A DNA stretch of 64,000 nucleotides, taken from NCBI GenBank assembly GCA_963776245.1, contig CAVZLN010000006.1:256001-320000 (forward strand), given 5' to 3'. Numbering within the stretch: position 1 is the stretch's first letter; every line of letters starts with the position of its first letter. The translations under genes were made by a program, and so were the position numbers. The stretch comes from Candidatus Eiseniibacteriota bacterium. Its GTDB lineage: Bacteria; Eisenbacteria; RBG-16-71-46. Below are positions 21,126 through 62,700 of this stretch, piece after piece. Under the pieces are notes generated by a model. The model ran no database searches, was not told the DNA's origin, and saw only the letters and a program-made list of their open reading frames with translations.

Positions 21126-22957
21126 GGTCTCCTTCCCAGCGTGGCGACGATCTCGACCTGCTGGCCGCCGCGCTTGATGGTGACGCGCACCTGCTGCCCG
21201 GGCTTCCGGGAGCGGAGCGCGTAGGTGTAATCGTAGAGGTTGTCGATGAGGATGCCGTCGAACTTCACCAGCACGTCGCCCTCCCGGAGCCCCGCGGCCT
21301 CGGCCGGGCTCTTGTCGCGCACCCCCGAGAGCAGCACGCCGCCCTCGCTCTGGCTGAAGTCGGGGATGGTCCCCAGATAGGCGCCGCCGTAACCGCGCCC
21401 GGCGGCCATGCGACCCGCGGCGCTGTCGGCCTCCGCCTTGCGCCACCGCGGGCGCGGTCGCGCGTCGAGCGACTCGATCAGCGCCGCCGCGAACCCCGCC
21501 ACGCGCGCGAGCCCGCGGGTAGTCCAGCTTGTCCCAGGTGTCGCTCGGCTTGTGGTAGTCGCCATGGGCGCCGGTGAAGAGCATGAGCACCGGGACCTGC
21601 CGCTTGTAGAACGACGAGTGGTCGCTCGGCCCGTAGCCATCGCTCGAGGGCTTCAACCGGAAGCCCGCCCCCGCGTTCACGCGCTCCACCAGTCCCGGGA
21701 ACTCGTCCGCGGTGCCGGTGCCCATCACCATCAGCTTGTCGTCCTTCAGGCGGCCGACCATGTCCATGTTGATCATGGCCTCGACCGTGTTCATCGGCCG
21801 GGGCGGGTCGTCGACGAAGTGCGAGGAGCCCAGCACCCCGCTCTCCTCGCCCGTGAACGACGCGAACACCAGCTCGTGCTCGGGCCGCCAGCCGTGCTTC
21901 ACCCGCAGCGCCAGCGCCCGCGCCACCTCGAGCAGCGCCGCGGTGCCCGAGGCATTGTCGTCGGCGCCCAGGTGCGGGCACGTGGCGGTTGTCGAGCGAG
22001 GACTCGCCGCCGTACCCGAGATGATCGTAGTGCGCGCCGATCACCAGGGTCCGCAGGGTGTCGCGGCCCGGCAGCCGGCCGACCACGTTGGCGATGCGCG
22101 CGCGGGTGCGCCGCAGCGTCACCGCGAGGGTCGCCGAGTCCCGGAGCGCGAACGAGCGCGGCTGGTCGTCCGTCCTCGATGGCGTTCTGAGCCGCGGCGA
22201 CCGAACTGCCCACGCCCTTCAGCAGCGCGTCCGCCACCCGCTCCGAGACCTGCACCGCCAGCAGCCCGCTGGACATGTAGCCGGTGCGCTCGGTGCGCGG
22301 CGGGCGCGGCGGCTCGCCGGCGTGGAACCGCGGACCGTTCACCACGATCAGGCCGAGCGCGCCGTGCTCGCGCGCGTTGATCGCCTTGGTGCGCAGTTCG
22401 GCGAACGGCGTGTTCACGGTGCCGTCGAAGCGGCTGGTGGAGTCGTTCTCGCCCGGCTCCTGGGTGAGCACCAGCACCAGCTTGTCGCGCACCTCGAGGC
22501 CGGCGTAGTCGTCCCATCCCAGCCCGGTCGCGGTGATGCCATAGCCGGCGAACACCACCGGCGCCGCCAGCGTGCCGTTGGTGGAGAAGCCGAGCGGCTG
22601 GAGATCGTCGCCGGGCGACACCCGCAGCCCGGCGGCGTCCACCTCGGTGGGCGCGTCCACCTCCACGCCGGTGGTGACCTCGAACGGCTGGCGCCAGGTG
22701 CCGTCGTCGCCCGCGGGCCGCAGCCCGAGCGCCCGCATGCGCCGCTCGAGATACGCCGCGGCGCTGTCGAGCCCCGCGGTGCCCACCCCGCGGCCCTCGC
22801 GCGCCGGGTCGGCGAGCCAGCGCACGGTCTCCTTCAGCACCACGCTGTCGGGCGCCGCACCCGGCCGGCGCGCGGCGTGGCCCGCGACCGGGGCGAGCAT
22901 CCCGAGCGCGAGCGCGAGCCACGCGACTCGGCGCGCGAGCGGGCGCGCATCCGCCAT
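21122..22957 (-). CDS. M28 family aminopeptidase with PA and C-terminal PDZ domains (several frameshifts)
   Basis: IGAHYDHLG, GADDNASG, FTGEESG, NMDMVGR, SDHSSF and HGDYHKPSD. PDZ segment YLGTIPDF. Confidence 0.88.
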
Positions 22958-31018: not shown

Positions 31019-31046
31019 TTCAGCCTGCCCGCCCGCGCGCCGATAA
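31019..31046 (+). promoter_or_regulatory. sigma28 (FliA/WhiG-type) promoter of the oxidoreductase-wecB-GT operon
   Basis: TTCAG-N15-GCCGATAA with a perfect consensus -10, about 100 bp upstream of the ATG at 31145. Confidence 0.65.
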
Positions 31047-42157: not shown

Positions 42158-42309
42158 CGCGCGCCCGCGGAGGCGGATCCGCGGCCGGGGACGGGAGCCC
42201 GTGGCCGTTCTTGCCGCGCTCGTCCGCGAATCAGGTGCGGGGCGCCCGCGCCCGGCTATCGTCCGCGCGACCCGTTCCGTCCGCACCTCCTCCATCGAGG
42301 GAGTCGTCC

Positions 42310-44343
42310 ATGCGCGTGAGAGCCCTGCTGCCCCTGTCCCTGATCGCCGCGGTCGCCTTCGCACCCTTCGCGCGCGCCGCGGACTCCGGCATCCGCGCGC
42401 TCGTGCCCGCCAACCTGGACACGACGTGCGCGCCGTGCCGCGACTTCTTCAAGTTCGCCAACGGCGGCTGGGTGTCGCGCACCACCATCCCACCCTCCCA
42501 GTCGAGCTGGGGCAGCTTCGACGAGCTCGCCGAGCGCAATCGCCTCACCCTCGCGGGCATCCTCGAGCGCGCGGCGAAGGACACCGGCGCGAAGCCGGGG
42601 TCCGAGACCTGGATGCTCGGCACGTTCTGGAACACCGCGATGGACTCGGCGCAGGCCGACGCCGCGGGCGCCGCGCCGCTCGCCCCGGTGCTCGCGGCCG
42701 TGGACGGGCTGGCCTCCACGCGCGACCTCGCGGGGCAGATCGCGTGGATGCACGAGCGCGGCATCGGCGGACTGTTCGGCTTCCGCGCCGCGCAGGACCC
42801 GGGCCACAGCGATGCCATGATCGCGTTCGTCGGCCAGGGCGGCCTCGGTCTGCCGGACCGCGACTACTACTTCCGCGACGACTCGGCCGCCCGGGCGATC
42901 CGCGTCGAGTACGTGGCGCACGTGGCGCGCACCTTCGTGCTGCTGGGCGAGGGCGAGGGCGCGGCGGGCGCCGACGCCGGGACGGTGATGGCGATCGAGA
43001 CCGAGCTCGCCCGCGCCTCGATGACCAACGTGCAGCGGCGCGATCCCCGGGCGACCTACAACAAGATGCCGCTCGACACGCTCCAGGGCATCGCGCCGGC
43101 CTTCGAGTGGGCCGCCTACCTCGGCCGGCGCGGGGCGCCCCGGGTGGACTCCGTCAACGTCACCCAGCCGGGCTTCGCGCGCGCGCTGAGCGGCCTCATC
43201 GCCACCCGCCCGCTCGCCGAGTGGAAGGCCTACCTGCGCTGGAAGGTGGCGGACGACGCTTCGCCGGTGTTGTCCGCGGCGTTCGCCGACGAGGCGTTCC
43301 GTTTCAACCGGCTGCTCAGCGGCCAGCTGGTGATGCAGCCGCGCTGGAAGCGCGCGCTGCGCTGGACCGACGCCGAGCTCGGCGACCTGCTGGGACGGGC
43401 GTACGTCAAAGAGCGCTTCTCCCCCGCCGCGCGCGAACGCGCGCTCGCCATGGTGCGCAACCTCGAGGCCGCGCTCGGAGACCGCATCCGCTCGCTCGAC
43501 TGGATGGACGAGGCGACGCGGCGCGCGGCGCTCGGCAAGCTCGAAGCGTTCGCGAACAAGATCGGCTACCCCGACACCTGGCGCGACTACCGGGGCGTGG
43601 AGCTGTCCCGCGGCTCACTCTACGCGTGCCGGCTCAGCACCCGGCACTACGAGTCGAAGCGGAACCTCGACCGCATCGGCAAGCCGGTGGAACGCGGCGA
43701 GTGGCAGATGACGCCGCCGACGGTGAACGCGTTCTACAGCCCGTCGCTCAACAGCATCAACTTCCCGGCCGGGATCCTGCAGCCGCCGTTCTACGATCCG
43801 TCATGGGACGACGCCATGAACTACGGCGGGATCGGCGCGGTCATCGGCCACGAGATGACGCATGGCTTCGACGACCGCGGCCGCCAGTTCGATGCCCGCG
43901 GCAACCTGCGTGACTGGTGGACGGCGAGCGACGCCGCGAACTACAAGGCCCGCGCCGACCGCGTGACCGAACAGTACGCGGGTTACACCGTGCTCGACAC
44001 GCTCCATCTCAACGGCCGGCTCACGCTGGGCGAGAACATCGCCGACCTCGGCGGGGTCGCGGTCGCCTACCACGCGCTCCAGAAGGCGCTGGCCGGCAAG
44101 CCGCGGCGGATCCTCGACGGGTTCACGCCGGAGCAGCGGTTCTTCCTGTCGTGGGCGCAGGTGTGGCGCGACGTGGCGCGCGACGAGGATCTCCGCACCC
44201 AGGTGCAGACCGATCCGCATTCGCCGCCCTACTGGCGGGTGAACGGGACGCTCTCGAGCCTGCCGGAGTTCCAGGCGGCGTTCGGCTGCCACGCTGGCGA
44301 CCCGATGGTGCGTGACCCGGAGAAGCGCGCGCGGATCTGGTAG
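42310..44343 (+). CDS. M13 family metallopeptidase (PepO/neprilysin-like)
   Basis: DFFKFANGGW, VNAFY, GHEMTHGFDD, TLGENIADLGG and DPHSP. Confidence 0.95.
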   Translation: MRVRALLPLSLIAAVAFAPFARAADSGIRALVPANLDTTCAPCRDFFKFANGGWVSRTTIPPSQSSWGSFDELAERNRLTLAGILERAAKDTGAKPGSETWMLGTFWNTAMDSAQADAAGAAPLAPVLAAVDGLASTRDLAGQIAWMHERGIGGLFGFRAAQDPGHSDAMIAFVGQGGLGLPDRDYYFRDDSAARAIRVEYVAHVARTFVLLGEGEGAAGADAGTVMAIETELARASMTNVQRRDPRATYNKMPLDTLQGIAPAFEWAAYLGRRGAPRVDSVNVTQPGFARALSGLIATRPLAEWKAYLRWKVADDASPVLSAAFADEAFRFNRLLSGQLVMQPRWKRALRWTDAELGDLLGRAYVKERFSPAARERALAMVRNLEAALGDRIRSLDWMDEATRRAALGKLEAFANKIGYPDTWRDYRGVELSRGSLYACRLSTRHYESKRNLDRIGKPVERGEWQMTPPTVNAFYSPSLNSINFPAGILQPPFYDPSWDDAMNYGGIGAVIGHEMTHGFDDRGRQFDARGNLRDWWTASDAANYKARADRVTEQYAGYTVLDTLHLNGRLTLGENIADLGGVAVAYHALQKALAGKPRRILDGFTPEQRFFLSWAQVWRDVARDEDLRTQVQTDPHSPPYWRVNGTLSSLPEFQAAFGCHAGDPMVRDPEKRARIW

Positions 44344-47638: not shown

Positions 47639-49382
47639 TCAGGCGTGGCCGGAGGTGGGCGCCGGGCGGCCCGCGGCGGGGAGCGTGAAGAAGAACGTGC
47701 TGCCCACGCCCGGCAGGCTCTCGACCCAGATGCGCCCGCCGTGCTGCTCGACGATGCCCTTGCTGATCACCAGCCCGAGACCGGTGCCACCGGCCTTGCG
47801 GGTCGCCGACGAGTCGATCTGCGAGAACTTGCGGAACAGCTTGGCGAGATCCTGCGGCGCGATGCCCTCGCCGTGGTCCCGGACCCCGACGCGCACGCCC
47901 TCCTCGCCCACCTCGGCGCCGATCTCGATGCGCCCGTTGGTGGGCGAGAACTTGATCGCGTTCGAGAGCAGGTTGGTGAGCACCTGGGCGATGCGGTTGG
48001 CGTCCATCATGAGGTCGGGCAGCTCCCCGGGAAGCACCAGGTCGAGGTGGATGCGGCGCTCCTCGATCAGCGTGCGCAGGTTGTACGCCGCCTGCTGGAC
48101 CACCGGTTCGAGCCGCTGGCGCTCGATGCTCATCGGCAGCGAGGCCGCCTCGATCTTCGAGAAGTCGAGGATGTCGTTGATCAGCACCAGCAGGCGCTCG
48201 GCGTTGGCGTGCGCGATGGTGAGCAGCTTGCCCTGCTGATCGGTGTTGTGGAAGTAGTGGTCGTCGGCGAGCAGCTCGATGGCGCCCTTCACCGAGGTGA
48301 GCGGGGTGCGGATCTCGTGCGACACCACCGCGACGAAGTCCGACTTGAGACGGTCGAGCACCTTGGTGTGCTCGAACAGCTGGGAGTTCAGCACCGCGAG
48401 CGCGGCCTGCGAGGCGTAGAGCATCATGAAGCTCTCGTCGTCGTCGCTGAAGCCGCCGGGCTTGTCGAGCAGCGCCAGCACGCCGATCACGCGCCCCTCG
48501 GCGAGCAGCGGCACCGCCGAGCATCGACGTGGTGCGCCGGTTCTCGATCCCGGGCACCTCGAAGGGCTCCGCGCCCACCCCGGTGGAGAGCCGCCGCGGC
48601 GTCTGGCCGGTGGCGCATTCCCACAGCGGGCCGCTCGGCTCGAGGGCCGCGGGCATGCCGTCCTCGCGCAGCTCCACGGTGGCGCCGTGCGCGGCGGCCA
48701 CGCGGAACTCCGCGGTGTCCTCGACCCGCAGGTAGACCACCGCGGCCGCCGAGCCGCCGGAGAGCTCGGCGCCCTTCTCGCACACCATCGCGAGACGCGG
48801 CGAGAGCTCGAGGTCCGCCATGATCGCCTTGCTGACGTCGTAGAGCGCGGTCATCTGCCAGGTCGCCAGGCGGACGCGCTCGCGCAACTCGTGCTCGTGG
48901 TGCTGGAGGATCTCGTTCTTCTGGCGCAGCTCCTCGACCAGCTGGCGGTTGACGGCCCGCAGCCGGCGGTGCGCCACGGCGCGGTCCACGATCTGCTCGA
49001 GGTCGTCGAGGTCGAACGGCTTCGGCACGTAGTCGTAGGCGCCCTGGCGCAGCGCGTCGATGGCGGTGCTGGCCGAGGCGTAGCCGGTGACCACGATGAC
49101 GCCCACCTCGGGGTCCACGCTCTTGGCGTAGCGCATCACCTCGAGGCCCGAGAGCCCGGGCAGGTTGATGTCGGTGAGGATGACGTCGGGGCGCAGCTCG
49201 GGCAGCACGCGCACCGCCTCCTCGCCGCTCAGCGCCACGGTCAGGTCGTAGCCCTTGGCCGAGAGGAACTCGCGGCACAGGTCGGCGACCGTCTCCTCGT
49301 CGTCCACCACCAGCACGCGCACCGGCGTGTCGTGTTCCGACAGGCTCAGCGCGGCGGCGGCTTCGGGCGTCAGCGGTTCCAT
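47639..49382 (-). CDS. Hybrid REC-GAF-histidine kinase (frameshift near 48520)
   Basis: VLVVDDE, TDINLPG, GAYDYVPKPF, a GAF-like region, SHEIRTPLTS, NLLSNAIKF and GGTGLGL. Confidence 0.9.
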
Positions 49383-49395
49383 CTCCGGTCCCCCG

Positions 49396-50358
49396 TCAGT
49401 GCACGCGCGCGCTCGCGCGCGTCACCACCTGCCGCCGGCCGCCCTTCTTCGCGAGCCCCAGCGCCTGGTCCACCCCGTTCATGAGCTCGAGCGGGTCGAA
49501 GCCGTCGCGCGGCGCGGCCACCACGCCGGTCGAGACCGTGAGACGTCCGACGCGGGCGAAGCGGTGCTCCTCGAGCGTGCGCCGCAGGCGCTCCGCCACG
49601 CGGCGCGCGGGCAGCACGTCGGTCTCGGGCAGCAGGATGCCGAACGCGTCGCCGCCCAGCCGCGCGATGATGTCGCCGTCCCGCAGCGCCAGCTTGAGCA
49701 CCAGCGCCACCTCGGCCAGCGCGCGGTCTCCGGCGGCGCGGCCGTAGCGCGCGTTGAGCGCGCCGAAATGATCGAGGTCCACCTCGAGCAGGCCGAGCGG
49801 CACCCCGTGCTCCGCCGCGCGCGCGACCTCCTCGGCGAGGCGCTCGTGGAACGCGCGCGCATCGGGCAGCCCGGTGACGGGGTCCCGCCCCGGCTGCTGA
49901 CGCAGGCGCGCCAGCTCGAGGCGCGCGCCGAGCGCGGCGCCGAGCGCGCCCGCGGCGGTGCGCATCAGCGCGTGCTGCGCGGGTGACCAGCGCCGGCCGG
50001 GATGCGCCAGCAGTTCGAGCGTGCCGACGCGCTCATCGCCGCGCGACAACGGCACCGCCATCACGCCGCGCAGATCGCCCGGCTCGCGTTCCCAGGGCCC
50101 GCGTGCGCACGAGCGCTCGAGCCTGCCCTGCGGTCCGAGCGCGTGGAGCGAGGCGCCGGCGCAATCGAACGCGCGCACCAGCGCGTCGAGGGCACGGTCG
50201 AGCGCGCGCGGTTCGGACGCCGCGGAGAGCAGCGCCTCGCAGGCGGCCCACAGCAGGCGCGACGCGCGGCGGCGTCCGTCGGCGGTGTCCGGCGGGTCGC
50301 CGACCCGTGTCCGGGCGACGCCGGCGGTGGCCGTCTCACGCCGCGCGGGCCGGAGCAT
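49396..50358 (-). CDS. GGDEF-domain protein with GGDAF variant motif
   Basis: DPVTGL, DLDHFGALNARYG, RDGDIIARLGGDAF and KKGGR. Confidence 0.88.
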   Translation of the reverse strand: MLRPARRETATAGVARTRVGDPPDTADGRRRASRLLWAACEALLSAASEPRALDRALDALVRAFDCAGASLHALGPQGRLERSCARGPWEREPGDLRGVMAVPLSRGDERVGTLELLAHPGRRWSPAQHALMRTAAGALGAALGARLELARLRQQPGRDPVTGLPDARAFHERLAEEVARAAEHGVPLGLLEVDLDHFGALNARYGRAAGDRALAEVALVLKLALRDGDIIARLGGDAFGILLPETDVLPARRVAERLRRTLEEHRFARVGRLTVSTGVVAAPRDGFDPLELMNGVDQALGLAKKGGRRQVVTRASARVH

Positions 50359-50740
50359 CGGATCCTCCGATCGAGTTCTTGAGGTCGCGCAGCCGGCCCG
50401 CGGCCTCCTGGATGCGGCCCGACTCACGCAGCATCACTTCCAGCCGCTCACGCACGCCGGGCTGCTGACCCGCCGGGCCCATCAGGAGCAGCTGGGCATG
50501 GCCGCGGACCCCCACCAGCGCGTTGTTGATCTCGTGGTGCGCCCCGAGCACTCGCCCGGCCTCCGCGTCCCACGCCTGCTGCTCAGCCCACCATGACGCG
50601 AGCGTGGCGCGCAGCGCGCGCGCGGCGTCGGCGTGGCCGGCCTGCTCGAGCTCGGCGGCCTGCGCGCCCAGCCGGGCGCGCAGCGCGAGCCACGGGGCCG
50701 GCTCCGAGCCGGCGCCCGAGCCGGGACGGGGCAGGCTCAC
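50336..50740 (-). CDS. Stand-alone HisKA/DHp-like protein without ATPase domain
   Basis: HHEINNALVGVRGHAQLL...ESGRI. Its GTG start overlaps the fliA stop codon. Confidence 0.65.
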   Translation of the reverse strand: MSLPRPGSGAGSEPAPWLALRARLGAQAAELEQAGHADAARALRATLASWWAEQQAWDAEAGRVLGAHHEINNALVGVRGHAQLLLMGPAGQQPGVRERLEVMLRESGRIQEAAGRLRDLKNSIGGSDAPARAA

Positions 50741-51588
50741 GCCGCCTCCTCTTCGAGCATCGCCTTGCCCAGCCGCAGGCGCATGCGGGACATCGCCCGC
50801 GTGTGCACCTGGGACACCCGCGACTCCGAGATGCCCAGCGTCCGTCCGATCTCCTTCAGCGTCAGGTGCTCGTAGTAGTAGAGCGAGACCACCAGCCGTT
50901 CCTGCTCCGGCAGCTGGTCGAGGGTGCGCAGCAGCACCAGGCGGGACTGCTGCTCCTCGAGGCGCTCCTGGTAGTCCACCACCGCCGGGTCGGCGAGATG
51001 GTCGCCCAGCGTCGCCGGCTCCTCGCCGTCGCCCGAGCGGCTCTCGTCGAGCGACACCAGCACGGCGCCGCGGACGTGATCGAGCAGGCGGTAGAAGTCG
51101 GGGCGGGTCATCTTCATCTCGCGCGCGACCTCCTCCTCGGAGGCGGCGCGGCCGAGCTTCTGGTCGAGCTTGCGCGTCACGCCGTCGAGGTTGCGCGCCT
51201 TGCGCCGCATCGAGCGCGACACCCAGTCGAGCGCGCGCAGCTGGTCGAGCACCGCGCCCTTGATGCGCCACACCGCGTAGGTCTCGAACTTCACGCCCTT
51301 GCGCGCGTCGAACTTCGCGTGCGCGTCGAGCAGCCCGAGCACGCCGGCCGAGTAGAGGTCCTCGTGATCCACGTTCTTGGGCAGCGTCGCCGCGACGCGC
51401 TCCACCACGTGGCGCACCAGCGGCGCGAAGCGCTTGAGCAGGTCGTTCTTCGAATACTGCACCGCGGCGGGCGCGGGCTGCGGGCGCGCGGCGCGGCGGG
51501 TGCCCGTCACCACGACGAGGCGCGGCGCGGGTCGGGCGGCGGGCGAGGACTTGGCGGTCGCGGTGGCGAGGATGGCAGGGCGGGCCAT
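50737..51588 (-). CDS. fliA: RNA polymerase sigma factor, FliA/WhiG (sigma28) family
   Basis: DLYSAGVLGLLDA, KFETYAVWRIKGAVLDQLRALDWVSRSMR and LTLKEIGRTLGISESRVSQVH. Confidence 0.94.
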   Translation of the reverse strand: MARPAILATATAKSSPAARPAPRLVVVTGTRRAARPQPAPAAVQYSKNDLLKRFAPLVRHVVERVAATLPKNVDHEDLYSAGVLGLLDAHAKFDARKGVKFETYAVWRIKGAVLDQLRALDWVSRSMRRKARNLDGVTRKLDQKLGRAASEEEVAREMKMTRPDFYRLLDHVRGAVLVSLDESRSGDGEEPATLGDHLADPAVVDYQERLEEQQSRLVLLRTLDQLPEQERLVVSLYYYEHLTLKEIGRTLGISESRVSQVHTRAMSRMRLRLGKAMLEEEAA

Positions 51589-51602
51589 GGGAATGAACCT
51601 CC

Positions 51603-52503
51603 TCAGGCTCTGAGACGTTCGACGCTCGGGGTCACGTCGGATGCCGGGGGCGAAGGGACATCCCAGAGCCGACCGGCCAGGGCGCGATAGGCCGCCGCGG
51701 CCAGGGACTGCGGGAAGGCGGTGAGCAAGGGTTCCTGCCGGCGCACCGCGCCGGGCACGGCGGGGTCGAGCGGCACCCAGCCCCAGTAGTCGATCTCGAG
51801 ACGCAGGAAGCGGCGGGCCACCAGGCTGATGCGATGCGACGTCTCCTCCGCCTCCTCGGGGCTCGCCGCCATGCTGACCACGAGGTGCGGCGCCCGCGTG
51901 AGGCCCTGGCGCTGGAGCAGCTTCACCAGGCCGTAGGCATCGGAGAACGCCGGCATCTCGGGCGTGGTCATCGAGCAGCACGTCGTCGGCGGACAGACAG
52001 AACGAGGTCACCTGGCGCGAGACGCCCGAGGCGGTGTCGATGAGCACCAGGTCGGCGTCCGCGGCGAGCGTTCCGAGGCCGCGCAGCAGGAACTCGCGCC
52101 GCACGTCGTCGAGCTCCGCGAGCTCGGGCTCGTTGGAGGCGGCCGGCACCAGCGTGACGTTCTTCGGTCCCCGGATCGCGATCTCCTCGAGCGTGCGCTC
52201 GCCCGCGAAGACGTGCTGCAGGTCGTAGCGCGGATGCACGCCGAGGAGCAGGTCGAGGTTGGCCTGCGAGAAGTCGGCGTCCACCAGCAGCACGCGGCAG
52301 CCGCGCTCGCCGAGCGCGATCGCCAGGTTGGCCGCGAGGTGGCTCTTGCCCACCCCGCCCTTGCCGCTCGCCACCACCACGGTGCGCACGCCGGGGCGTG
52401 CCCACTGGGCCGGATGGTCGCTCTCCCCCGAGGTCGCGTGACCCGGGACCACGCGCAGGCCGGCGCGGGCCGCGGGCGTGTCGTTTCCGCGGCGCGGGCT
52501 CAC
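51603..52503 (-). CDS. flhG: FlhG/FleN MinD-family ATPase (frameshift near 51970)
   Basis: ASGKGGVGKS, LLVDADFSQANLD, IDTASG, TTPE..AFSDAY and VRRQEP. It lies directly upstream of fliA. Confidence 0.85.
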
Positions 52504-52745
52504 GCGGCCAGCCCCGTGGCGCGCGACGCGCCGGGCAGCGTCATGACCGCACGCAGGAATTCCCAGTAGCGGCGCTGCTCGCGGCAGCGGCGCAGCGCGA
52601 GGTCGAGACCGAGGCGCGAGAGCCGGCGCTCCTCCTCGCGCAGCGAAGCGAGCGCGGCGTCCAGCGCGTCGAGGCGCGCGCCTTCGCCCGCGGGCACCTC
52701 GCGGCGCGGATCGGCGGACGGCGTCACCGGCGGGCGGCGGTTCAC
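52500..52745 (-). CDS. Small helical hypothetical protein (81 aa)
   Basis: GTGA-type overlaps on both sides. Sequence includes RLDALDAALASLREEERRLSRLGL...EQRRYWEFLRAV. Confidence 0.6.
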   Translation of the reverse strand: MNRRPPVTPSADPRREVPAGEGARLDALDAALASLREEERRLSRLGLDLALRRCREQRRYWEFLRAVMTLPGASRATGLAA

Positions 52746-53059
52746 GACGCCCTCCGCAGCCGCGCGACGCCGACCGCGGCGCGTGCGGCGCGACGCGAAC
52801 CGAGACCGTGATAGGCGCGCGTCAGCTCGGCGAGCAGCGCGCGATAGCGGGCGGTGATGCTGGCCTCGGGCAGCCGCAGCGCGCGCGCGGCCTCGGCCGG
52901 GGTCAGGCGCTCGACCAGCAGCAGGGCGAGCATCATGCGCTCGCGCGGCGCGCAGTGTTCGAGCGCGTCGAGCAGGCGGCGCCGGATCACGCTGTCGGCG
53001 AGCGCGGGCCCGTCCGCGGGCGGGCGGCGCGGCGGCGGCGCGGCGCCGGCAGTCCTCAC
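52742..53059 (-). CDS. sigma70 region-4-only protein
   Basis: LDALEHCAPRERMMLALLLVERLTPAEAARALRLPEASI aligns by eye with region 4 of the neighbouring FliA ([36 protein letters not shown]). Confidence 0.7.
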   Translation of the reverse strand: MRTAGAAPPPRRPPADGPALADSVIRRRLLDALEHCAPRERMMLALLLVERLTPAEAARALRLPEASITARYRALLAELTRAYHGLGSRRAARAAVGVARLRRAS

Positions 53060-53458
53060 GCGGCCTTCCGCGGCGCGGGGCGGTACGGCGCGCGGCGCGG
53101 TCGAGGGCCAGGCGCACCGAGCGGCGGAGCGCGTCCATCGGGAACGGTTTCGGGAAGCACTCGGCGACCCCCGCCGCGCGCAGTTCGCGCAGCGTCTCGG
53201 GCGCGGCGTAGGCGGTGAGGATCACCACCGGCTGGGCGTGGCGACCACGGCCGTAGCTTGCGCGCGAGGTCGAGCCCGCTCATCCCGGGGAGCTTCGAGG
53301 TCGGAGATCACGAGGTCGCTGTGTCCGCCGTTGCGCAACCAGCCCCACGCCTCTTCGGCGGAGCGGAACGCGTCGATCGTGAACCCGTCGTCCGAGAGCC
53401 CTTCGGAAAGGGCCCAGGAGGTGGTGGGCTCGTCTTCGACGATCAGGATGTGGGGCAT
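53056..53458 (-). CDS. Single-domain response regulator (frameshifted)
   Basis: MPHILIVEDE, DLVISD, PGMSGLDL, VILTAY and FPKPF, spread across frames. Confidence 0.85.
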
Positions 53459-53497
53459 GGCGAGGCTCTCCGGGGTGAGGTCGCGGAGAACCCGTTT

Positions 53498-53513
53498 TGC
53501 AGTCGTCGTGCCA
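53498..53513 (-). promoter_or_regulatory. sigma54 promoter of the REC-sigma4-ORF-flhG-fliA operon
   Basis: TGGCAC-GACGA-CTGCA, 40 bp upstream of the ATG at 53458 and just downstream of a sigma54 activator gene. Confidence 0.8.
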
Positions 53514-53787
53514 GAGGTGGACGGCGGGCGCCGCAGGGCGGCCGTCGGGGTGGTCGCGGGGGCGAAGTGCGCCGGGATGGCGGCTGCATCCGGTTCGAGG
53601 TCAGCGGGTTAGCGCGGCACCTCAGGTGCCGCTGGGCCGCTGGGAATCGCTGTCCGGGGCGCCGGCCGCGGGGGCGTCGGCTCCGGGCGCGTCCCGCGTC
53701 TCAGAACGCCCGCTCAAGCGCGTTCCGCATGGTCACGCGCTCCGACCGTAACTGGCCGGCGGGCGAGCCGGAAGCGGCCGGCAGGGC

Positions 53788-55204
<1,417 letters not shown>

Positions 55205-56460
55205 GACGTTTCTCCACCGGGAAGTTGAGGAGCAGGGTCGTGCCGCGTCCTTCGCGGGTCGCCACCTCGATGGCGCCGCCGTGCTCCTGCATGATGGTCT
55301 GCGAGATCGCGAGCCCGAGTCCGGTCCCGCGCGACTTGGTCGAGAAGAACGGATCGAACATCTTCTCGAGCACCCCGCGCGGGATGCCGGGGCCGGTGTC
55401 GATGACGCGCACCTGCTGGAACTCGATGCGCGTGGCGTGCTCGCGGGCCCGGTGCCGCGATCGTCGGCCGCGCCGGCCCGGTCCGCGCGGCGGGGCGCGG
55501 CGGCGCACCTTGCGCACCTCGTAGCGCAGCGTGCCACCGGCCTCCATGGCCTGCACCGCGTTGAGGCTGATGTTGAGCAGCACCTGCTGCACCAGGTCGG
55601 GGTCGATGTAGAGCGTGCCCAGCCGCGGCGCGACGTCGCGCTCGACCGTCACCCGGGCCTGCGCGATCGGCTCGGCGAGCAGCTCGACCACGCGGTCGAC
55701 GCACGCGCCGAGCTCGGCGGGGCGCAGCTCGGGGGTGCGCGGGCGCGCGTACTGGAGCAGGCTGGCGACGATGCGGTCGAGCCGCGCCACCTCGTCGAGG
55801 ATGACCTGCACGAAGCGCGCGCGGTCGTCGCGGGGCTCGAATCGGCGCAGCAGCACCTGCGCGCTGGTGCCGATGCCGGCGAGCGGGTTGCGGATCTCGT
55901 GGGCCACGCCCGCGGAGAGCTGGCCGAGCGTGGCGAGGCGCTCCTTGCGCCGCAGCTCCTCCTGCAGGCGGCGGGTGCGCGTCAGGTCGTGGAGCACGAT
56001 CAACGCCCATCCCGGACGGTCCGAGCCGGGTGCCGTGCAGCAGCACCGGCACCTCCACCCCGCCCTCGCCGAGCAGCACGGTCTCGCGTTCGATGCGCGC
56101 GCGGCGCGCGAGGTCGCCCGACCGGGTCGTCGCCCGGCACGCATGCTGCGGAACAGCTCGCCGGCGGCGCGCCCGCGGGCGCGCGCCGCGCGCACGCCGA
56201 GCAGGCGCGCGGCCACCGGATTGAGCATGGCGACGCGGCCGCGCGGCGTCGAGCAGCACGACTCCGGCTTCGACGTCGGACATGAGTGCCCTGAACAGGG
56301 CATCGGGCGGCGGCATCCGTACCGCCGGGGCGCGCGGGGCGCGCTTCACGGGCATGACCGCTCCATGGCGCGGGCAGTATAGCCGCGCGGAGCCCATGGG
56401 CGATAGCGCCGTGATGCGGGTCGTGTGGCCGGAGCGGGCCGGGTGCGCGCGGCGCGCGGC

Positions 56461-56652
56461 TCAGCGGCGGCGCAGTTCCTCGAGGAGTTCGTCGACCAGC
56501 CGCGACTTCACGTCGTCGCGGTCGTACCAGCCGGCCGCGACGCGGGCCCGGGCCGTGGCGATGTGGGGCCAACGGATGTACTCGTCGATGCGCGCGGGCG
56601 CCTGGGCCGGGACGGCTGCCGGGCCGCGGGTGGAGCGTGAGGACGGGGTCAT
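56461..56652 (-). CDS. FlgM-like anti-sigma28 factor (63 aa)
   Basis: [32 protein letters not shown] resembles the FlgM C-terminal pattern (R..kV..lk..I..G.Y.vd...iA..ll). Its ATG overlaps the csrA stop. Confidence 0.6.
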
Positions 56653-56975
56653 CGTTCCTCGACGCGGTCCGCGCGGGGACGCCGTGCGCGAGGAGCGCGC
56701 CGCGCCCACGACGGTCGGCCGCCGGTCGTCATCGCCCGGACGTTCAGAGCTTCCCGTTCGGATCCGCGCGGTCCGGGCGGGGTGTCGATCTTGGTTCCCT
56801 GCGCGCGACGGTTCTCTTCCTGGATGCGCGCGTAGATCTCCTCCCGGTGCACCTTGACCTCGGGTGGCGCCTCGATGCCGAGCTTGACCTGGCCGGAGCG
56901 GACCTCGAGCACGGTGATCTTCACCGTGTCCCCGATCCGGATGTTCTCTCCTAACTTCCTTGTTAGGACCAGCAT
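56649..56975 (-). CDS. csrA: Carbon storage regulator CsrA (long, Firmicutes/Spirochaete-like C-terminus)
   Basis: [55 protein letters not shown]. Confidence 0.96.
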
Positions 56976-57029
56976 CTTCCTGAGTTCCTCCGCTCCTTGC
57001 CGGGGCCGGAGGGCGCCCGGACAGTCAGC

Positions 57030-57057
57030 GTATCGGCATGCGTCGCATGCCTCTTGA
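57030..57057 (-). promoter_or_regulatory. sigma28 promoter of csrA-flgM-like
   Basis: TCAAG-N15-GCCGATAC. The spacer overlaps the palindrome GGCATGCG-T-CGCATGCC (57035-57051). Confidence 0.75.
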
Positions 57058-57162
57058 GGCGAGAATAGACACATCCGGGGCCGGCGGCCAAGTGAGGACT
57101 CGCGCTTGACACCGCTGCGAGCGCTTGCGAGCCTGCAGCCGACCACTCCTCCGGAGGTGCGC

Positions 57163-59626
57163 ATGGAACGTGGCTGGCCTTCGCACCTGCTGTCATGGCT
57201 TCTCGTTCCGGCGGTCGCCCTGCTCGTGGCGTCGGCCCTGAGCCTGCCCCGGCGCGGGTACACCGGACTGGTGCCGCGCGGCGACGTGATCGAGAACGTC
57301 GATCCCGGCAGCCCGGGCGCGCGCGCGGGAGTGCGGCCGGGCGACCGCCTCGCTCCCACCCGCGCCGGCGAGGCCCCCGACGCGCCGCTCGTGGCGGCCA
57401 CGCCCGGGCGCCCGCTGACCCTCGTGCTCGAACGCGGCGGCGCGCAGCGGCGCGTCTGGCTCGCGCCCGAGACCCTGCCGCCGGGCGACTGGCGCAAGCG
57501 GGTCGGCCAGCTGCTGGTCGCCGCGGGATTCGTGCTGCTCGGCGGCTGGGTGTGGAGCGAACGACGCGATCCGCTGACGCGCGTCTTCCTGCTGTTCTGC
57601 CTGTCGTTCGCGGTGATGCTGGTGCCCCCTCCGGCTTTCGGGTCCGTCCACGTCACGCGCATCCACGAGCTGGCGATGACGGCCGCGCAGCTGTTCCTGC
57701 CCGCGCTGTTCGTCCACTTCTTCGCGCTGTTCCCCGAGTCGCGCGGCCCGCGCGGAGCGCTCGGCGCCACGGTGAGCGTGGGCTACGGGGTGGCGACCGT
57801 GCTGTTCGTCGCCGCCATCGCCCTCGAGGCGGTGCGGCTGGCGCGCCCGAGCACCGCCCAGGACGCCCTCGACGCGCTCCACATCTCGGCCGGAGCGTGG
57901 TTCGTGATGGGCCTGCTGTGGGCCCTCGCGCTGTTCGCCCGCTCCTATCTGCGCGCCGGCCCCCCCGACGCGCGCCGGCGGCTGCGCGTGGTGCTCGCCG
58001 GCACCGCGCTCGGCGTGATCCCGCTCGCGGGTCTGGTGGCGCTGCGCAACCTGGCGCCGGGCGTGGCGCTGCCGGGCGAGCGCTGGTCGCCGCTGCTCAC
58101 GCTGCTGGTGCCCGCGTCGTTCGCGTGGGCGATCGCGGTGCACCGCATCTTCGACTTCCGCGTCGCGCTGCGCGCGGGCATCGGCGCGCTGCTGGTGGCC
58201 GCGCTCTCGGGCGCGGCGTACGTCGTCGGCGAACGCATCGCGGCGGTGCGGCGCCCCGACCTCTCGGGCGGCATGGGCGGCGCCGCGCTCGCGTTCGTCA
58301 TCGCGGCGCTGGTGGTGGCGGGGCCGGTGCGCCGGCGCCTGCGGGTGCTCACCGGCGGCGAGGGCGGTGAGCGGCCGCTGGCCGAATGGACCGGGCACCA
58401 CCCGTTCGGGCACGACACCTCGGACTCGATCCTGTGCTCGGCGTGCGAGGTGCTCCATCAGGCGCTGCGCCTCGACGGCAGCGCCGTGCTGGTGCCGTCC
58501 CGTGGCGAGGGCCTGGTGGCGGCGAGCGCGGGGGCCTCGCCGGCGGTGCTGCTCGAACGCCTGCCGCTGGACCTCGCCGCCGGCCGGGTGGCGGCGCTCG
58601 AGGACGCGGCGCTCGAGCCCGCCGACCGCGCCGCGCTCGAGGACGCGGGCGCGCGCTGGCTGCTGCCGGTGGGCGAGGCCCCGGCGCGCGCCCTGTTCGT
58701 GCTCGGGCGCCGGCTCGCGGGCTCGTGGCTCGACCACGCGGAGATGGCCGAGCTGCAAGCGCTTCGCCGCTCGCATCGAACTGGCGCTCGAGAACGCGGC
58801 GCTGCGGCGCGAGGCGAGCACGCATGGCCGGCTCGACCGCTCGCTGCGCGAGGCGGGCGCGATCCAGGCGCATCGCCTGCCGCGGCGCGCGCCGGTCTTC
58901 CCCACGCTCGACTGCGCGGCCGCCGCGCTCTCGAGCGAGGCGGTGGGCGGCGACTACTACGACTTCGTCGAGGGACCGTCGCGCGATTTCACGCTCGCCG
59001 TCGGGGACGCGGCCGGGCACGGCGTCCCCGCGGCGCTCGTGCTCGCCGACGTGCAGGCGCGCTTCCGTGCCGCCGCCCAGCGTGGCCAGGCCCCGAGCGA
59101 GGTGCTCGCCGCGCTCAATCACGAACTGGTGCGCCACGGCGAGCCCGAGCACTTCGTGGGCCTGCTGTGCGCCCGGGTCGAGGCGCGCGAGGGCCGGGTG
59201 TGGATCGCCAACGCCGGCATCACCCCACCGGTGCTCCGCCGCCGCGACGGCACCACCAGCCAGCTGCTGGCGGGCGGGGTGCTGCTCGGGGTGCGCGCGG
59301 GCTCGGACTACCCCGAGGTGTGCGTCCAGCTCGCCGCCGGGGACCTGCTGGTCATCCACACCGACGGCCTCACCGAGGCCCGGCGGGGCGAGGAGATGTT
59401 CGGCGACGAGCGCGTCCGGGAGGTGCTCGACGCCCACGCCCACCGCCGGGCGGCCGACATCGTGCAGGCCCTGTTCGAGGCGGTGCGGGAGTTCGCCGAC
59501 ACCCCGCTCGACGACATCACGGTCCTGGTGCTGCGCCAGCTCACCGGGGGGCCCTCCGCCCCGGCCCCGGGCGGCCCGATCCCCACGCTCATGTCCACCG
59601 ACCTGCTGGCCGATACCGAGGGGTGA
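57163..59626 (+). CDS. Membrane PP2C/SpoIIE (RsbU-like) phosphatase with PDZ, multi-TM and GAF-like regions (frameshift near 58760)
   Basis: PDZ motif [16 protein letters not shown], many TM segments, [23 protein letters not shown] and DDITVLVL. Confidence 0.88.
59589..59616 (+). promoter_or_regulatory. Candidate sigma28 promoter inside the 3' end of the phosphatase gene
   Basis: TCATG-N15-GCCGATAC, about 100 bp upstream of the small ORF at 59715. Confidence 0.5.
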
Positions 59627-60630: not shown

Positions 60631-61087
60631 CTACGGCAGCCAGCGCGGCTGAGCGTATCCCAGGCCGCCGTACTGCAGCGGCGAGCGCAGCTGATGGTAC
60701 TCGAAGGAGAACTGCGGTGTTCCCGCGCGGCTGCCAGTCCATCCGCAGCCCTTCGAGGAAGAACGGGTTCCTGCCCGAGGCGGCCGCGTCCGGGCCCCAG
60801 CTGTTGCCGAGGCTCACGCTCAGGGCGAACGGAGCGCGGAACTGATAGCTGAGGCTGGTCACCTGGAGCGCGTCGGTGCCGCGGCCCGAGAACCCCCCGA
60901 CCGTGACCGACGTCGAGACGTGCAGGCGCTGCGGATCGATCCAGGACGACGCGCGAGCGAGCGCGCTGGTGGGCACCGGAGGACGCCACGCGCCGAGCGA
61001 CGGGGCGCCGGACTGCCAGGATTGCGCGCTCGCGGGAACCGCCGCGAGGGCGAGCACGAAGGCGCACAGCACGATGTTCTGGCGCAT
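60631..61087 (-). CDS. Secreted hypothetical protein, beta-strand rich (frameshift near 60710)
   Basis: Signal peptide MRQNIVLCAFVLALAAVPASA, plus a TTGACA box upstream. Confidence 0.6.
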
Positions 61088-61161
61088 GGGTCGATAATGA
61101 TAACCGCGCGCCGCCCCTGTCAATGGCGACGGGGAGGCGCGGGTCCAGAGGGTGCAAAAGG

Positions 61162-62424
61162 TCAGGCGGCCTGTTCGTCCTCACCGAAGACGATGCGCAG
61201 CACGATCTCGCACGAGCTGTCGCGCGGCACCCGGATGGGGATGACGACCGGCTTGCGGCCCGGGTGAGCGGACGTCTGGGGCGCGGCCGCTTCCACCGCC
61301 CGCTCGGCCGGAGCGGGGACCACCACCGGGATGGTCCTCGTGACCGGCTCCCGCCGGCTCTCATGCGCGGGCTCGGGCATCGGCTCGGGACGCGTCGAGG
61401 TCTCGAAGTGCGCCACCGGCCGGGGGCGCGCCATGGGCGTGGGAGGCTCGGTGGTCTCCGGGCGCGCCGCGCCGACCGGCGCGTGCGGGGCGGGGACTCC
61501 CGCGCGGGGCGCCGGGGGCGGCGCGCTGGAGCGCGGAGCGGACGGCGCGGCGGCGGCGTGAGCCGCCACCGGAGCGGGCGGCGCCTTCGTCGGCGGCGGC
61601 GGCTCGAGCGCCTGCATCGCGTCGGGCAGCTCGATCTCGCGGCCGTAGTCCACGGCGCCGCGGCCGACCTCCATCACGGGAACGGGCGTCTCCGGCAGCT
61701 CGCGCTGGAGCGCGTGACCGCCCATACCGGGCAGCGCGGCCGGCTGGAAGGCGGCCTCGGCCGCGCGCGCGGGCCCCGGCTTGACCATTTCCTCCGGCGC
61801 CGCGGGGCGCGGCGCGGTGGTCGCGCTGGTGCGCCGCAGGTCCTTGGTCACCTTCTCCATCAGCAGGTGCGAGATGCCGCGGAAGGTCTCGAACACGCCC
61901 TTGCCCTGGGTCGCGACCGCTTCGAAGAACGGGACCTTGCCGCCCGGGTTGAGCTCGGCGTTGAGTTCCTCGACGGAGTAGAGGTTCGGCAGGTCGCGCT
62001 TGTTGTACTGGATCACCCACGGCAGCGCGTCGAGGCTGAGGTTGTACTCGGCCAGGTTGGCGCGCAGGTTGGCGAGGCTCTCCTTGTTCTCCTCCATCTT
62101 GCCGACCTCGGAGTCGGCCACGAACACGATCGCGTCCGCGCCCTTGAGCACCAGCTTGCGCGTGGCGTTGTAGAACACCTGGCCGGGGACCGTGTAGAGG
62201 AGGAAGCGCGTCTTGAAGCCCATGATCTCGCCGAGATCGAGGGGCAGCAGGTCGAAGAACAGCGTGCGGTCGGACTGCGTCTTCATGCTCACCATCTTGC
62301 CGCGGCTGGTCTCGGGGACCGCCTCGTAGATGGATTCGAGGTTCGTCGTCTTCCCGCTCAGGCCGGCGCCGTAGTACACCAGCTTGGCGTTGATCTCCTT
62401 GCCCGAATAGCTCACGACGACCAC
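61162..62424 (-). CDS. mglA: MglA-family small GTPase with long Pro/Ala-rich C-terminal extension
   Basis: KEINAKLVYYGAGLSGKTTNL, DRTLFFD, LYTVPGQVFYNATRK, VFVADS and QYNKRD. SD AAGGAGG precedes the GTG at 62424. Confidence 0.9.
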   Translation of the reverse strand: MVVVSYSGKEINAKLVYYGAGLSGKTTNLESIYEAVPETSRGKMVSMKTQSDRTLFFDLLPLDLGEIMGFKTRFLLYTVPGQVFYNATRKLVLKGADAIVFVADSEVGKMEENKESLANLRANLAEYNLSLDALPWVIQYNKRDLPNLYSVEELNAELNPGGKVPFFEAVATQGKGVFETFRGISHLLMEKVTKDLRRTSATTAPRPAAPEEMVKPGPARAAEAAFQPAALPGMGGHALQRELPETPVPVMEVGRGAVDYGREIELPDAMQALEPPPPTKAPPAPVAAHAAAAPSAPRSSAPPPAPRAGVPAPHAPVGAARPETTEPPTPMARPRPVAHFETSTRPEPMPEPAHESRREPVTRTIPVVVPAPAERAVEAAAPQTSAHPGRKPVVIPIRVPRDSSCEIVLRIVFGEDEQAA

Positions 62425-62672
62425 GGTCGATCCCTCCTTGTGCGACCCCACCCTGTCGCGAGGCAATCCCCCATGGAGCCCCTTGCCGCCCTTTCTCCAC
62501 AGGAACCTCGAGGGTGCGGTGAACCGTCCAGATAGTCGGTGCTTTCGCCGAGCCCGGACGGGCCGACGCGCACCGGATGGGGTCGCCACTCTCGTTACCG
62601 CCGCTGCGGCTCCCTGACGCGAGTCACGCCGCAATCGCCCGGCGCACCGCCGGACGTCTGCTGTCGGTGTGT

Positions 62673-62700
62673 CTATCGGCCCGGCGCCGCACGACCTTGA
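62673..62700 (-). promoter_or_regulatory. sigma28 promoter upstream of mglA
   Basis: TCAAG-N15-GCCGATAG, the same architecture as the csrA promoter. Confidence 0.75.

Follow-up and report, generated by a model that had tools for sequence, protein, structure and literature searches.

The flagellar regulatory hierarchy of Pseudomonas and Vibrio comprises FleQ, FleSR, FleN, FliA, and FlgM, and that of Campylobacter and Helicobacter comprises FlgSR, FlhF/FlhG, FliA, and FlgM. In flagellated cells, sigma28 (FliA) is freed by secretion of FlgM through the finished basal body. Chlamydiae, a lineage without flagella, have a sigma28 that is associated with a developmental program. Flagellar regulators are also known from other bacteria that do not swim. 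Non-flagellated Legionella species are described as having lost the structural flagellar genes while keeping "mainly genes with regulator functions," namely, fliA and flgM in clade III; fliA, fleN, fleR/fleS, and flgD in the L. longbeachae subclade; and fleQ, fliA, fleN, and flgM in L. israelensis (PMC5655016). Similarly, a study on Actinomycetota describes a split between WhiG1 and WhiG2, with predicted non-flagellar regulons that include type IV pili and cyclic di-GMP (c-di-GMP) metabolism (PMC12871210). Here, we describe a locus of flagellar regulators located at positions 47639 to 57057 of a stretch of 64,000 nucleotides (nt) (the window; G000:C6:256001-320000) from the genome of an uncultivated Candidatus Eiseniibacteriota bacterium (G000; 3.56 Mb, 72% G+C, 9 contigs, 92.39% complete). 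The locus is probably a regulatory remnant of an ancestral Eisenbacteria flagellar cluster that was kept by selection after deletion of the structural genes and now serves a non-flagellar program. Nothing on flagellar regulators in Eisenbacteria was found in the literature searched, supplements aside.

Descent of the locus and absence of a flagellum

In the flagellated relatives G025 (family f2) and G060 (family f10), the genes are arranged in the order fliM-fliN-fliO-fliP-fliQ-fliR-flhB-flhA-flhF-flhG-x-fliA-...-HDOD-GAF-GGDEF, and in G025 the GGDEF gene is followed by a gene for a REC-GAF kinase. Comparison shows that the flhG-fliA...GAF-GGDEF/REC-GAF-kinase block of the window matches the 3' tail of this operon. 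The window FlhG is 49.5 to 53.7% identical to the flhF-adjacent FlhG of f2, the window FliA is 55 to 56% identical to FliA of these flagellar operons, and the last protein of the block, a response regulator-kinase with REC, GAF, HisKA, and HATPase domains, is 51.4% identical to the product of the last gene of the f2 operon tail. A GAF-GGDEF-type gene follows fliA also in f13, f15, and f18, as it does in f2 and f10.

Gene orders that resemble stages of a deletion were found in other families. In the non-flagellated G172 (f18), fliN-fliO runs straight into flhG-x-fliA-HDOD-GGDEF-kinase, and this junction looks like a deletion scar. The non-flagellated G081 (f15) has a PAS-kinase/NtrC gene pair directly 5' of flhG, followed by the GGDEF and response regulator-kinase genes, with a fliA match between flhG and GGDEF. 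In G078 (f13, 97% complete; L203), where FlhA was not detected, fliW and a flagellin-like gene (partial Flagellin_N match) adjoin the PAS-kinase/NtrC pair; this genome may represent another intermediate stage of flagellar loss. The gene csrA adjoins fliW in f2 and adjoins flgM in f1 and f3, and, judging from gene order, csrA and flgM have moved next to the PAS-kinase/NtrC pair.

A maximum likelihood tree of FliA (36 rows, with Escherichia coli FliA and two G000 sigma factors serving for reference and the root placed on other sigma70-family proteins) united all sigma28-type proteins in one clade (100/100) and placed the window FliA in a native Eisenbacteria clade (95/97) together with FliA of the f2 flagellar operon. 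FliA was present in 41 of 41 relatives. Because FliA is 75 to 88% identical within f1 (with lower values for G005, 71%, and for G021, whose copy is split over contigs) and CsrA is 89 to 98% identical in f1 and f3, both proteins are under strong purifying selection. The f1 genomes that have FlhA carry, beside flhA, a second FliA that is 36 to 41% identical to the native sigma28; these second copies form a clade of their own (99/99), which grouped with E. coli FliA at 89/77. The corresponding second flagellar cluster, flhB-flhA-flhF-flhG-fliA2-...-flgF/G, is complete in G002, G006, G010, G018, G020, G021, and G024 (e.g., L030 and L031). It may have had a separate origin, with flagella regained by horizontal transfer after an earlier loss in this lineage.

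Among 172 genomes of the phylum that were at least 80% complete, native sigma28 (E <= 1e-45) was found in 164 and FlhA (over cut-off) in 59. As three of the eight sigma28-negative genomes were FlhA positive, sigma28 occurs without FlhA in 108 genomes. In three families, sigma28 was nearly universal and FlhA was not found (f3, 8/8 versus 0/8; f17, 5/5 versus 0/5; f18, 32/34 versus 0/34 over the cut-off). In nine genomes of the f18 genus g77 (G155, G157, and G159-G165), the sigma28 match contains one in-frame TAG, which could be either an artefact of open reading frame (ORF) boundaries in a read-through search or real recoding or readthrough.

G000 itself had no match to any of seven flagellar families (FHIPEP, Flagellin_N, Flg_bb_rod, FliG_C, FliW, FlgM [Pfam], and MotB_plug), searches for each of which were positive in two to five control genomes. 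Of 88 ORFs from four flagellar-cluster loci of relatives that were used as tblastn queries, 72, including those for FliM/N/O/P/Q/R, FlhB, FlhA, and rod proteins, had no match in G000, and the 16 matching ones represented either FlhG, FliA, and the response regulator-kinase, all mapping to the locus, or generic domains elsewhere. G000 gave no FlhF; the search for FliW, which took in G000, G001, and G010 but not f3, was negative in all three; and FlhA and flagellin were not found in the 98%-complete congener G001. With nine contigs and 92.39% completeness, one could suppose that the organism is flagellated and that its structural genes happen to fall within the 8% of the genome that was not assembled. 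This is exceedingly improbable, however, since a flagellar regulon consists of dozens of genes in several clusters and would hardly leave none of the seven families and no structural ORF behind. In addition, the congener also gave no FlhA or flagellin, whole families are devoid of FlhA over the cut-off, and the place of flhA-flhF in the relatives is filled in the window by three other genes (for REC, a sigma4-only protein, and an 81-amino-acid [aa] protein) within a continuous contig.

An earlier note on this DNA, made from the letters of the window, had described a compact set of flagellar regulators with no flagellar structural or export gene in the window, and had proposed genome-wide, synteny, and phylogenetic checks. 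Its gene list and gene order stand, all genes having been recovered on the minus strand by Pfam matches and as intact G001 orthologues, and the window indeed holds no structural or export gene. The checks agree with its view of the locus: hidden Markov model (HMM) searches of the whole genome revealed no flagellar genes in G000, and no FlhA or flagellin in G001; the locus corresponds to the 3' tail of a fliMNOPQR-flhBA-flhF operon that is intact in f2 and f10 and reduced to a fliN-fliO stub in f18; and its FliA is native.

Genes of the locus and breaks in their reading frames

Open frames alone are unreliable at such a high G+C content, and the genes were therefore placed on the basis of Pfam matches and a codon-position HMM, both of which put all locus genes on the minus strand (Table 1). 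The locus is collinear with that of G001, our reference for intact orthologues, across 11.5 kb, with 82.7% nucleotide identity. In the 5'-to-3' direction, csrA, the flgM-like gene, and the genes for the PAS kinase and the NtrC-type activator are followed by a 330-nt gap and then by the block of REC, sigma4-only, 81-aa ORF, flhG, fliA, DHp-only, GAF-GGDEF, and REC-GAF-HisKA-HATPase kinase genes. Five junctions (csrA|flgM, REC|sigma4, sigma4|81-aa ORF, 81-aa ORF|flhG, and fliA|DHp) are GTGA/ATGA start-stop overlaps, in agreement with the note's statement that most of the genes are joined in this way; the DHp stop also stands in a GTGA context, where the start of the GGDEF gene is uncertain.

Table 1. 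Features of the regulatory locus and the divergent neighboring gene (window positions)
Feature	Positions	Strand	Remarks
Predicted sigma28-type promoter TCAAG-N15-GCCGATAC	57030..57057	-	Intergenic, ~55 nt upstream of csrA; score, 12/13
csrA	56649..56975	-	CsrA domain at 56975-56817; Pfam CsrA, 86.9 bits
flgM-like gene, predicted anti-sigma28 factor	56461..56652	-	C-terminal ~40 aa clear; true start may be further upstream
PAS-HisKA-HATPase sensor kinase	55146..56345	-	Intact 401-aa G001 orthologue with PAS domain
NtrC-type sigma54 activator (REC-AAA+-HTH_8)	53788..55204	-	Sigma54_activat, 219.9 bits; intact 470-aa G001 orthologue
Predicted sigma54 promoter TGGCAC-N5-CTGCA (GG-N10-GC), TGGCACGACGACTGCA	53498..53513	-	~40 nt upstream of REC start
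Single-domain response regulator (REC)	53056..53458	-	2 insertions and 1 deletion; halves in two frames
Sigma4-only protein, 105 aa, ECF-type region 4 HTH	52742..53059	-	Sigma70_r4_2, E 0.002
Conserved 81-aa protein, two-helix hairpin	52500..52745	-	In 68/80 related loci
flhG, MinD-type ATPase, SGKGGVGKS	51603..52503	-	One single-base insertion at 51972
fliA (sigma28), intact 283-aa ORF	50737..51588	-	Sigma70 r2, r3, and r4 (Pfam)
DHp-only protein (HisKA without ATPase), H-box HHEINNALVGVRGHAQLLL	50336..50740	-	HisKA, 26-28 bits
GAF-GGDEF diguanylate cyclase	49396..50361	-	GGDEF, 117.7 bits
REC-GAF-HisKA-HATPase kinase (response regulator-kinase)	47639..49382	-	Intact 579-aa G001 orthologue; insertion at 48515
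PDZ-GAF-PP2C (SpoIIE-type) phosphatase	57106..59626	+	Divergent from csrA; syntenic in relatives; frame break near 58754

The G001 orthologue of FliA exceeds the cut-offs of two curated models (TIGR02479 FliA_WhiG, 248.7 versus 189.6; NF005413, 232.2 versus 201), and regions 2, 3, and 4 are present with no region 1. Genomic association of FliA with flagellar genes, which is a matter of context and no sequence criterion of the family, is seen only in the sister families f2 and f10 and not in G000. CsrA likewise scores over curated cut-offs (NF002469, 96.2 versus 73; TIGR00202, 93.6 versus 70.1) and is 87 to 91% identical to the f2 copy; its C-terminal tail is unlike that of G001 because of an 8-nt gap at 56764. 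The flgM-like ORF has a variable N terminus and a C-terminal region of ~40 residues kept in 11 of 11 relatives. This C terminus aligned with that of the f2 (G025) FlgM (hhalign probability 97.3%, E 2.5e-11, 41 columns), which itself passes the Pfam FlgM cut-off (28.4 versus 25); on this profile evidence, the ORF encodes a diverged FlgM, a predicted anti-sigma28 factor. Its family profile had no matches at E <= 1 against PDB sequences.

FlhG has the deviant Walker A motif KGGxGK[ST] and is the sole match in the genome to the f2 FlhG encoded next to flhF, whereas FlhG of the second flagellar cluster, used as a tblastn query, did not match it. There was no match to an NCBIfam FlhG model, and the MinD models score under their cut-offs. 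Concerning possible partners of FlhG, queries with FlhF matched only a 27 to 29%-identical GTPase of the signal recognition particle type elsewhere in G000, and FliG, FliM, and FliN were not found in G000, so that FlhG occurs there without these C-ring proteins.

The NtrC-type activator of G001 contains REC, AAA+, and HTH_8 domains, and the same three domains are spread across three frames in the window. The usual sigma54-contact loop of such activators is GAFTGA, and it reads GAFTDA in 12 of 12 loci (window position ~54520). The REC protein has intact orthologues of 122 to 133 aa with the acceptor residues in 11 relatives. The sigma4-only protein, whose helix-turn-helix (HTH) region is of the extracytoplasmic function (ECF) type, was found in 64 of 80 related loci; its G001 orthologue matches Sigma70_r4_2 at E 2.7e-4. 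The match to TIGR02937 is in region 4 only. The 81-aa protein is predicted to form a confident helical hairpin (AlphaFold mean pLDDT, 85.0) with no Pfam or NCBIfam match, the best Foldseek hit in the PDB being to generic Rop- or ferritin-like helices at E 1.5. The DHp-only protein is kept in 11 relatives, and its H-box is presumably NtrB-like. Two small ORFs flanking fliA in f2 (78 aa, hydrophobic; 148 aa, acidic) were considered as counterparts of the 81-aa and DHp-only proteins and rejected, being unlike them by inspection and having no tblastn match. The divergent phosphatase gene has an intact 802-aa orthologue in G001 and a partial one in f3.

Relative to G001, the conserved coding sequence of the locus contains 12 isolated single-base insertions and 1 deletion, which break the genes for the PAS kinase (insertions at 56247, 56141, 56117, and 56016), the NtrC-type activator (55072, 55034, 54739, and 53951), REC, FlhG, and the response regulator-kinase and had been missed in the earlier note. 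Because of these single-base changes, the domains of the five genes lie in different frames. A frame HMM detected 482 frameshift-like switches genome-wide, or 1.56 per 10 kb of coding sequence, and these were clustered, with up to 18 per 10 kb and at least 6 events in 4.8% of 10-kb windows. Elsewhere in the window, frame switches were located at 58754 (PDZ-PP2C gene), 60713-61164 (trp region), 21518-22169, and 38303-39032. A homopolymer cause was considered and rejected: the mean longest run was 3.39 at the switches versus 3.64 at random sites, and the 13 indels of the locus are outside homopolymers.

The frame breaks are most likely consensus or assembly errors, a reading drawn from the 482 events genome-wide and the predominance of +1 insertions (12 of 13), as well as from the retained codon bias and domain scores of the segments, the intact relatives, and contigs from elsewhere that do not have the extra bases. 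All locus genes are intact in G001, G009, G017, and G011. Contigs from four other metagenome runs do not have the extra base at 51972 (two independent contigs), ~53254, 54741, and 55035, and the stretch 54513-55308 is matched by a 97.6%-identical contig of 792 nt that falls 4 nt short of the window sequence. These contigs represent mixed populations and are informative only for the insertion sites that they cover, and none of the sequencing runs contained more than 0.22 of the sampled words. If the breaks were real, the locus would be a decaying pseudogene cluster, and the cascade would be dead or dying in this organism though working in its relatives. We consider this very unlikely. Thirteen uncompensated indels in five genes, none at a homopolymer, and an HMM event density of 6 per 9.4 kb, ~4 times the genome mean, would fit with decay. 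However, the frame segments keep strong codon bias and domain scores (Sigma54_activat, 219.9 bits; HATPase_c, 110 bits) and contain no in-frame stops, nearly all indels are of one kind, similar events affect the trp region and the PP2C gene and are equally dense in 4.8% of 10-kb windows, and the extra bases are missing from independent contigs at four sites. Gene calls or pseudogene claims in G000 need to be checked against relatives.

Promoters and the predicted regulon

The sigma54 promoter lies exactly where the earlier note had placed it. The pattern TGGCAC-N5-NTGCA, which combines the GG-N10-GC core with the TGGCAC and TGCA elements, was found in 12 of 12 loci (the window and 11 relatives), with variants in the class-level relatives G038 and G039, and rpoN is present in G000.

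The textbook sigma28 promoter is TAAA-N15-GCCGATAA. The f2 flagellin genes are preceded by TAAAG/TCAAG-N14-GCCGA(A/T)(A/G)A, and a tolerant scan of G000 for TCAAG-N15-GCCGATAA gave 33 intergenic sites at spacer 15, compared with 4, 4, 7, 9, 2, and 5 sites at spacers 12, 13, 14, 16, 17, and 18, respectively. About 25 to 30 sites appear to be above background in G000, and a gene in the same orientation lies no more than 400 nt from 31 of 34 sites. We assign the motif to the native sigma28 because of its GCCGATAA -10 element, the f2 flagellin promoters, and its position before csrA-flgM. The -35 and -10 elements of the csrA promoter are kept in 12 of 12 f1 and f3 loci while the spacer sequence drifts, one locus having an N16 spacer. 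Upstream of the gene for an MshE-like ATPase, a regular expression retrieved the motif from 14 of 18 f1 loci, and 3 more keep only the -10 element. Inspection also showed the motif upstream of pilB in 6 of 6 f1 genomes, a regular expression retrieving it from 2 of the 5 relatives. A sigma28-like site in the 3' end of the NtrC gene (53840-53813) was rejected as a promoter, as it is located in coding sequence and was found in only 3 of 12 loci.

The predicted targets include (i) pilB-pilT-pilC-pilS-pilR-pilins; (ii) the MshE-like ATPase (MshEN-T2SSE-zinc ribbon; c-di-GMP-binding motif, 51.8 versus a cut-off of 38), followed by an HD-GYP gene and cstA; (iii) a REC-GGDEF gene, followed by two genes for histidine kinases of the HK-GAF-HD-GYP type and a REC; (iv) a PilZ protein and HEAT-repeat genes, one with an HD-GYP gene after it; (v) CHASE4, GAF, and PAS hybrid kinases and a PP2C; and (vi) lptC, upstream of rpoN. 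In addition, many leaders of the MshE-like ATPase genes carry GGA at the Shine-Dalgarno sequence and the start codon, like the f2 flagellin leader, which hints at a new target for CsrA.

We infer the following circuit from the conserved genes and promoter motifs. The PAS kinase would phosphorylate the NtrC-type activator, which together with sigma54 would fire the promoter at 53513-53498 and transcribe the REC-to-response regulator-kinase block as one translationally coupled operon. The diverged FlgM would hold sigma28, and free sigma28 would read the TCAAG-N15-GCCGATAA promoters. In this way, it would drive csrA-flgM, as a negative feedback, as well as the pilB-pilT-pilC-pilSR-pilin cluster, the MshE-like ATPase with the HD-GYP gene, the REC-GGDEF/HK-GAF-HD-GYP operon, the PilZ protein, and several sensor kinases. 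On this reading, what was once a cascade for swimming seems now to control type IV pili and c-di-GMP signaling. The sigma28-type promoters found precede csrA-flgM, pilus, c-di-GMP, and sensor-kinase genes and not flagellin or chemotaxis genes; the case that the note had named as evidence against its proposal, with promoters mainly before the latter, was thus not observed. Its idea of rewiring to another program is supported as far as surface behavior is concerned, with type IV pili and c-di-GMP as the likely program, but not for dormancy or differentiation.

Several points weigh against the reading of the locus as a selected remnant with a new program. The assembly is only ~92% complete. The locus carries 13 frame-disrupting indels, none covered by reads of the source strain, and may have been inactivated recently. 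The flgM-like proteins of G000 and G001 had no match to PF04316 (FlgM) at E <= 0.1. The counts of FliA, FlhA, and flagellin among the relatives and across the phylum include one unpublished genome (G026, f3), itself unanalyzed. As to the promoters, TAAA-N14-16-CCGATA had 0 matches in G000 (1, 1, and 0 in shuffled sequences); the -35 element TCAAG and the spacing are unlike those of the textbook promoter; several of the 33 sites are chance occurrences, given a background of 2 to 9 sites per spacer class; the pilB site scores only 11/13; and both the promoters and the regulon are predictions.

The rival to our promoter assignment is that the locus works but TCAAG-N15-GCCGATAA is read by another sigma factor or is partly chance, in which case sigma28 would control little beyond its own csrA-flgM loop and its connection with pili and c-di-GMP would not be real. 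Such a situation seems unlikely to us. The noncanonical -35 element and spacing, the lack of canonical matches, and the 2 to 9 intergenic sites of the other spacer classes speak for it, as do the further sigma70-family proteins of G000 (three more matches, two at 29 to 33% identity) and a promoter-sigma28 pairing drawn purely from sequence. On the other hand, the -10 element comprises the entire sigma28 octamer GCCGATAA, enrichment is confined to spacer 15, and at three targets the motif is retained from genus to genus despite drift of the spacer sequence. Furthermore, the same architecture is found before f2 flagellin, and it precedes flgM here as in known systems (PMC5655016).

A mechanistic question is how FlgM is released without the export gate, and a candidate for the answer is found among the genes of the sigma54-driven operon. 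As a speculative idea, to which we give little weight, the sigma4-only protein may be a decoy that replaces the export checkpoint: by attaching to the C-terminal helices of FlgM, it would draw FlgM away from sigma28, and two-component input would thereby free sigma28 directly. In parallel, CsrA, in a cell without FliW and flagellin, would gate the translation of the sigma28-driven MshE-like ATPase through the GGA motifs at the Shine-Dalgarno sequence and the start codon. A predicted complex of the sigma4-only and FlgM-like proteins scored 0.58, against 0.00 for the best of three controls, with contact agreement between runs of at least 92% and a partner pLDDT of at least 66, and weakly supports the decoy. 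Of 157 solved complexes, 116 attained the pass mark, as did 2 of 215 mismatched pairs, but scores of 0.60 or lower included only 18 of the 157 solved complexes along with both passing mismatches. By the account of the prediction tool, a pass of this kind is wrong more often than right, except where the guess was probable from the start. The pass may also reflect mere likeness to the solved sigma28-FlgM complex, and any region 4 domain might score. For one non-flagellated Legionella species, proteolysis has been suggested for the release from FlgM (PMC5655016).

Some further sequence elements were observed near predicted promoters. The sigma28-type promoter TCAAGTCGGTGACTCATCAGCCCGATAA (G000:C6:235875-235902, outside the window) precedes lptC, with rpoN ~1.7 kb downstream on the same strand (C6:232954-233430); sigma28 might therefore feed back on the supply of sigma54. 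Upstream of the csrA promoter (window ~57110-57070, minus strand; L017-L032), a conserved TGTCAAG is located ~50 nt 5' of the -35 element, and CTATTCTCGC stands directly before that element in most f1 loci. The two blocks may serve as a site for a regulator or as promoter of the PP2C gene, which is transcribed divergently. Similarly, GTGCAGATTCC is conserved directly upstream of the -35 element of the pilB cluster in six genomes (G000:C4 ~42290-42365; L205-L209), where a second regulator, e.g., the PilR-type activator of the cluster, might bind. Two other sigma28-type sites are in the window, one at 62673-62700 (minus strand), 223 nt upstream of a 429-aa ORF (61165-62451, minus strand) with no Pfam match, and the other at 31019-31046 (plus strand), 94 nt upstream of a flavin amine oxidase gene.

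Comparison with known systems

The cascade shares with the Pseudomonas/Vibrio and Campylobacter/Helicobacter hierarchies, as commonly described, a PAS-type kinase with an NtrC-type regulator, sigma54, FlhG/FleN, sigma28, and FlgM, as well as the adjacency of flhG and fliA. In contrast to these systems, the Eisenbacteria locus has no FlhF, no basal-body checkpoint, and no flagellar targets. To our knowledge, Chlamydiae have no such sigma54-FlhG-FlgM-CsrA locus organization. The earlier note had likened the locus to Streptomyces WhiG and chlamydial sigma28; closer precedents are non-flagellated Legionella (PMC5655016) and WhiG2 (PMC12871210).

Retention of flagellar regulators without a flagellum is already known from Legionella and Actinomycetota, and Eisenbacteria represent a variant of it. 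The variant differs in that (i) the whole sigma54-to-sigma28 cascade is in one locus; (ii) csrA is retained while FliW was not found; (iii) lineage-specific partners (the sigma4-only, DHp-only, and 81-aa proteins) are present; and (iv) the extent is phylum-wide, with deletion intermediates. As in Legionella, where flgM expression is sigma28 dependent, FlgM has to be controlled without basal-body export (PMC5655016). However, the Eisenbacteria belong to another phylum, and their regulators are gathered in a single compact locus that has a sigma54 promoter within it and to which csrA (with FliW not found in G000), the sigma4-only, DHp-only, and 81-aa proteins, the GGDEF cyclase, and the response regulator-kinase are added. 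Moreover, the state is clade-wide (108 of 172 genomes), and the predicted regulon consists of pili and c-di-GMP signaling, whereas virulence-linked targets are discussed for Legionella (PMC5655016).

The WhiG/WhiG2 case is similar in that one sigma28 lineage is tied to a flagellar cluster and one is not, but WhiG2 is held by RsiG armed with c-di-GMP (PMC12871210), whereas the Eisenbacteria protein has a diverged FlgM and an upstream sigma54/NtrC cascade. In addition, the orphan sigma28 of Eisenbacteria is the vertically inherited one, and the flagellar-cluster copy in some f1 genomes is the outlier. With respect to the CsrA-FliW-flagellin system of Bacillus subtilis (PMC13443453), the Eisenbacteria CsrA is 87 to 91% identical to the f2 copy encoded next to fliW, and a gene predicted to be driven by sigma28 shares with the f2 flagellin leader GGA motifs at its Shine-Dalgarno sequence and its start codon. 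However, FliW and flagellin were not found in G000, and the candidate CsrA target is the MshE-like ATPase mRNA. According to a model in the same work, few of the Eisenbacteria CsrAs would be repressors of B. subtilis hag (flagellin) (PMC13443453).

In 108 of the 172 Eisenbacteria genomes, the sigma54-to-sigma28 cascade, FlhG, FlgM, and CsrA have persisted after loss of the flagellum, which makes the phylum a natural experiment on the fate of a regulatory hierarchy once its machine is deleted. For annotation, fliA, flhG, flgM, and csrA should not be taken as evidence of motility. The parallels with Legionella and Actinomycetota suggest that the swimming switch has been reused recurrently for surface behavior.

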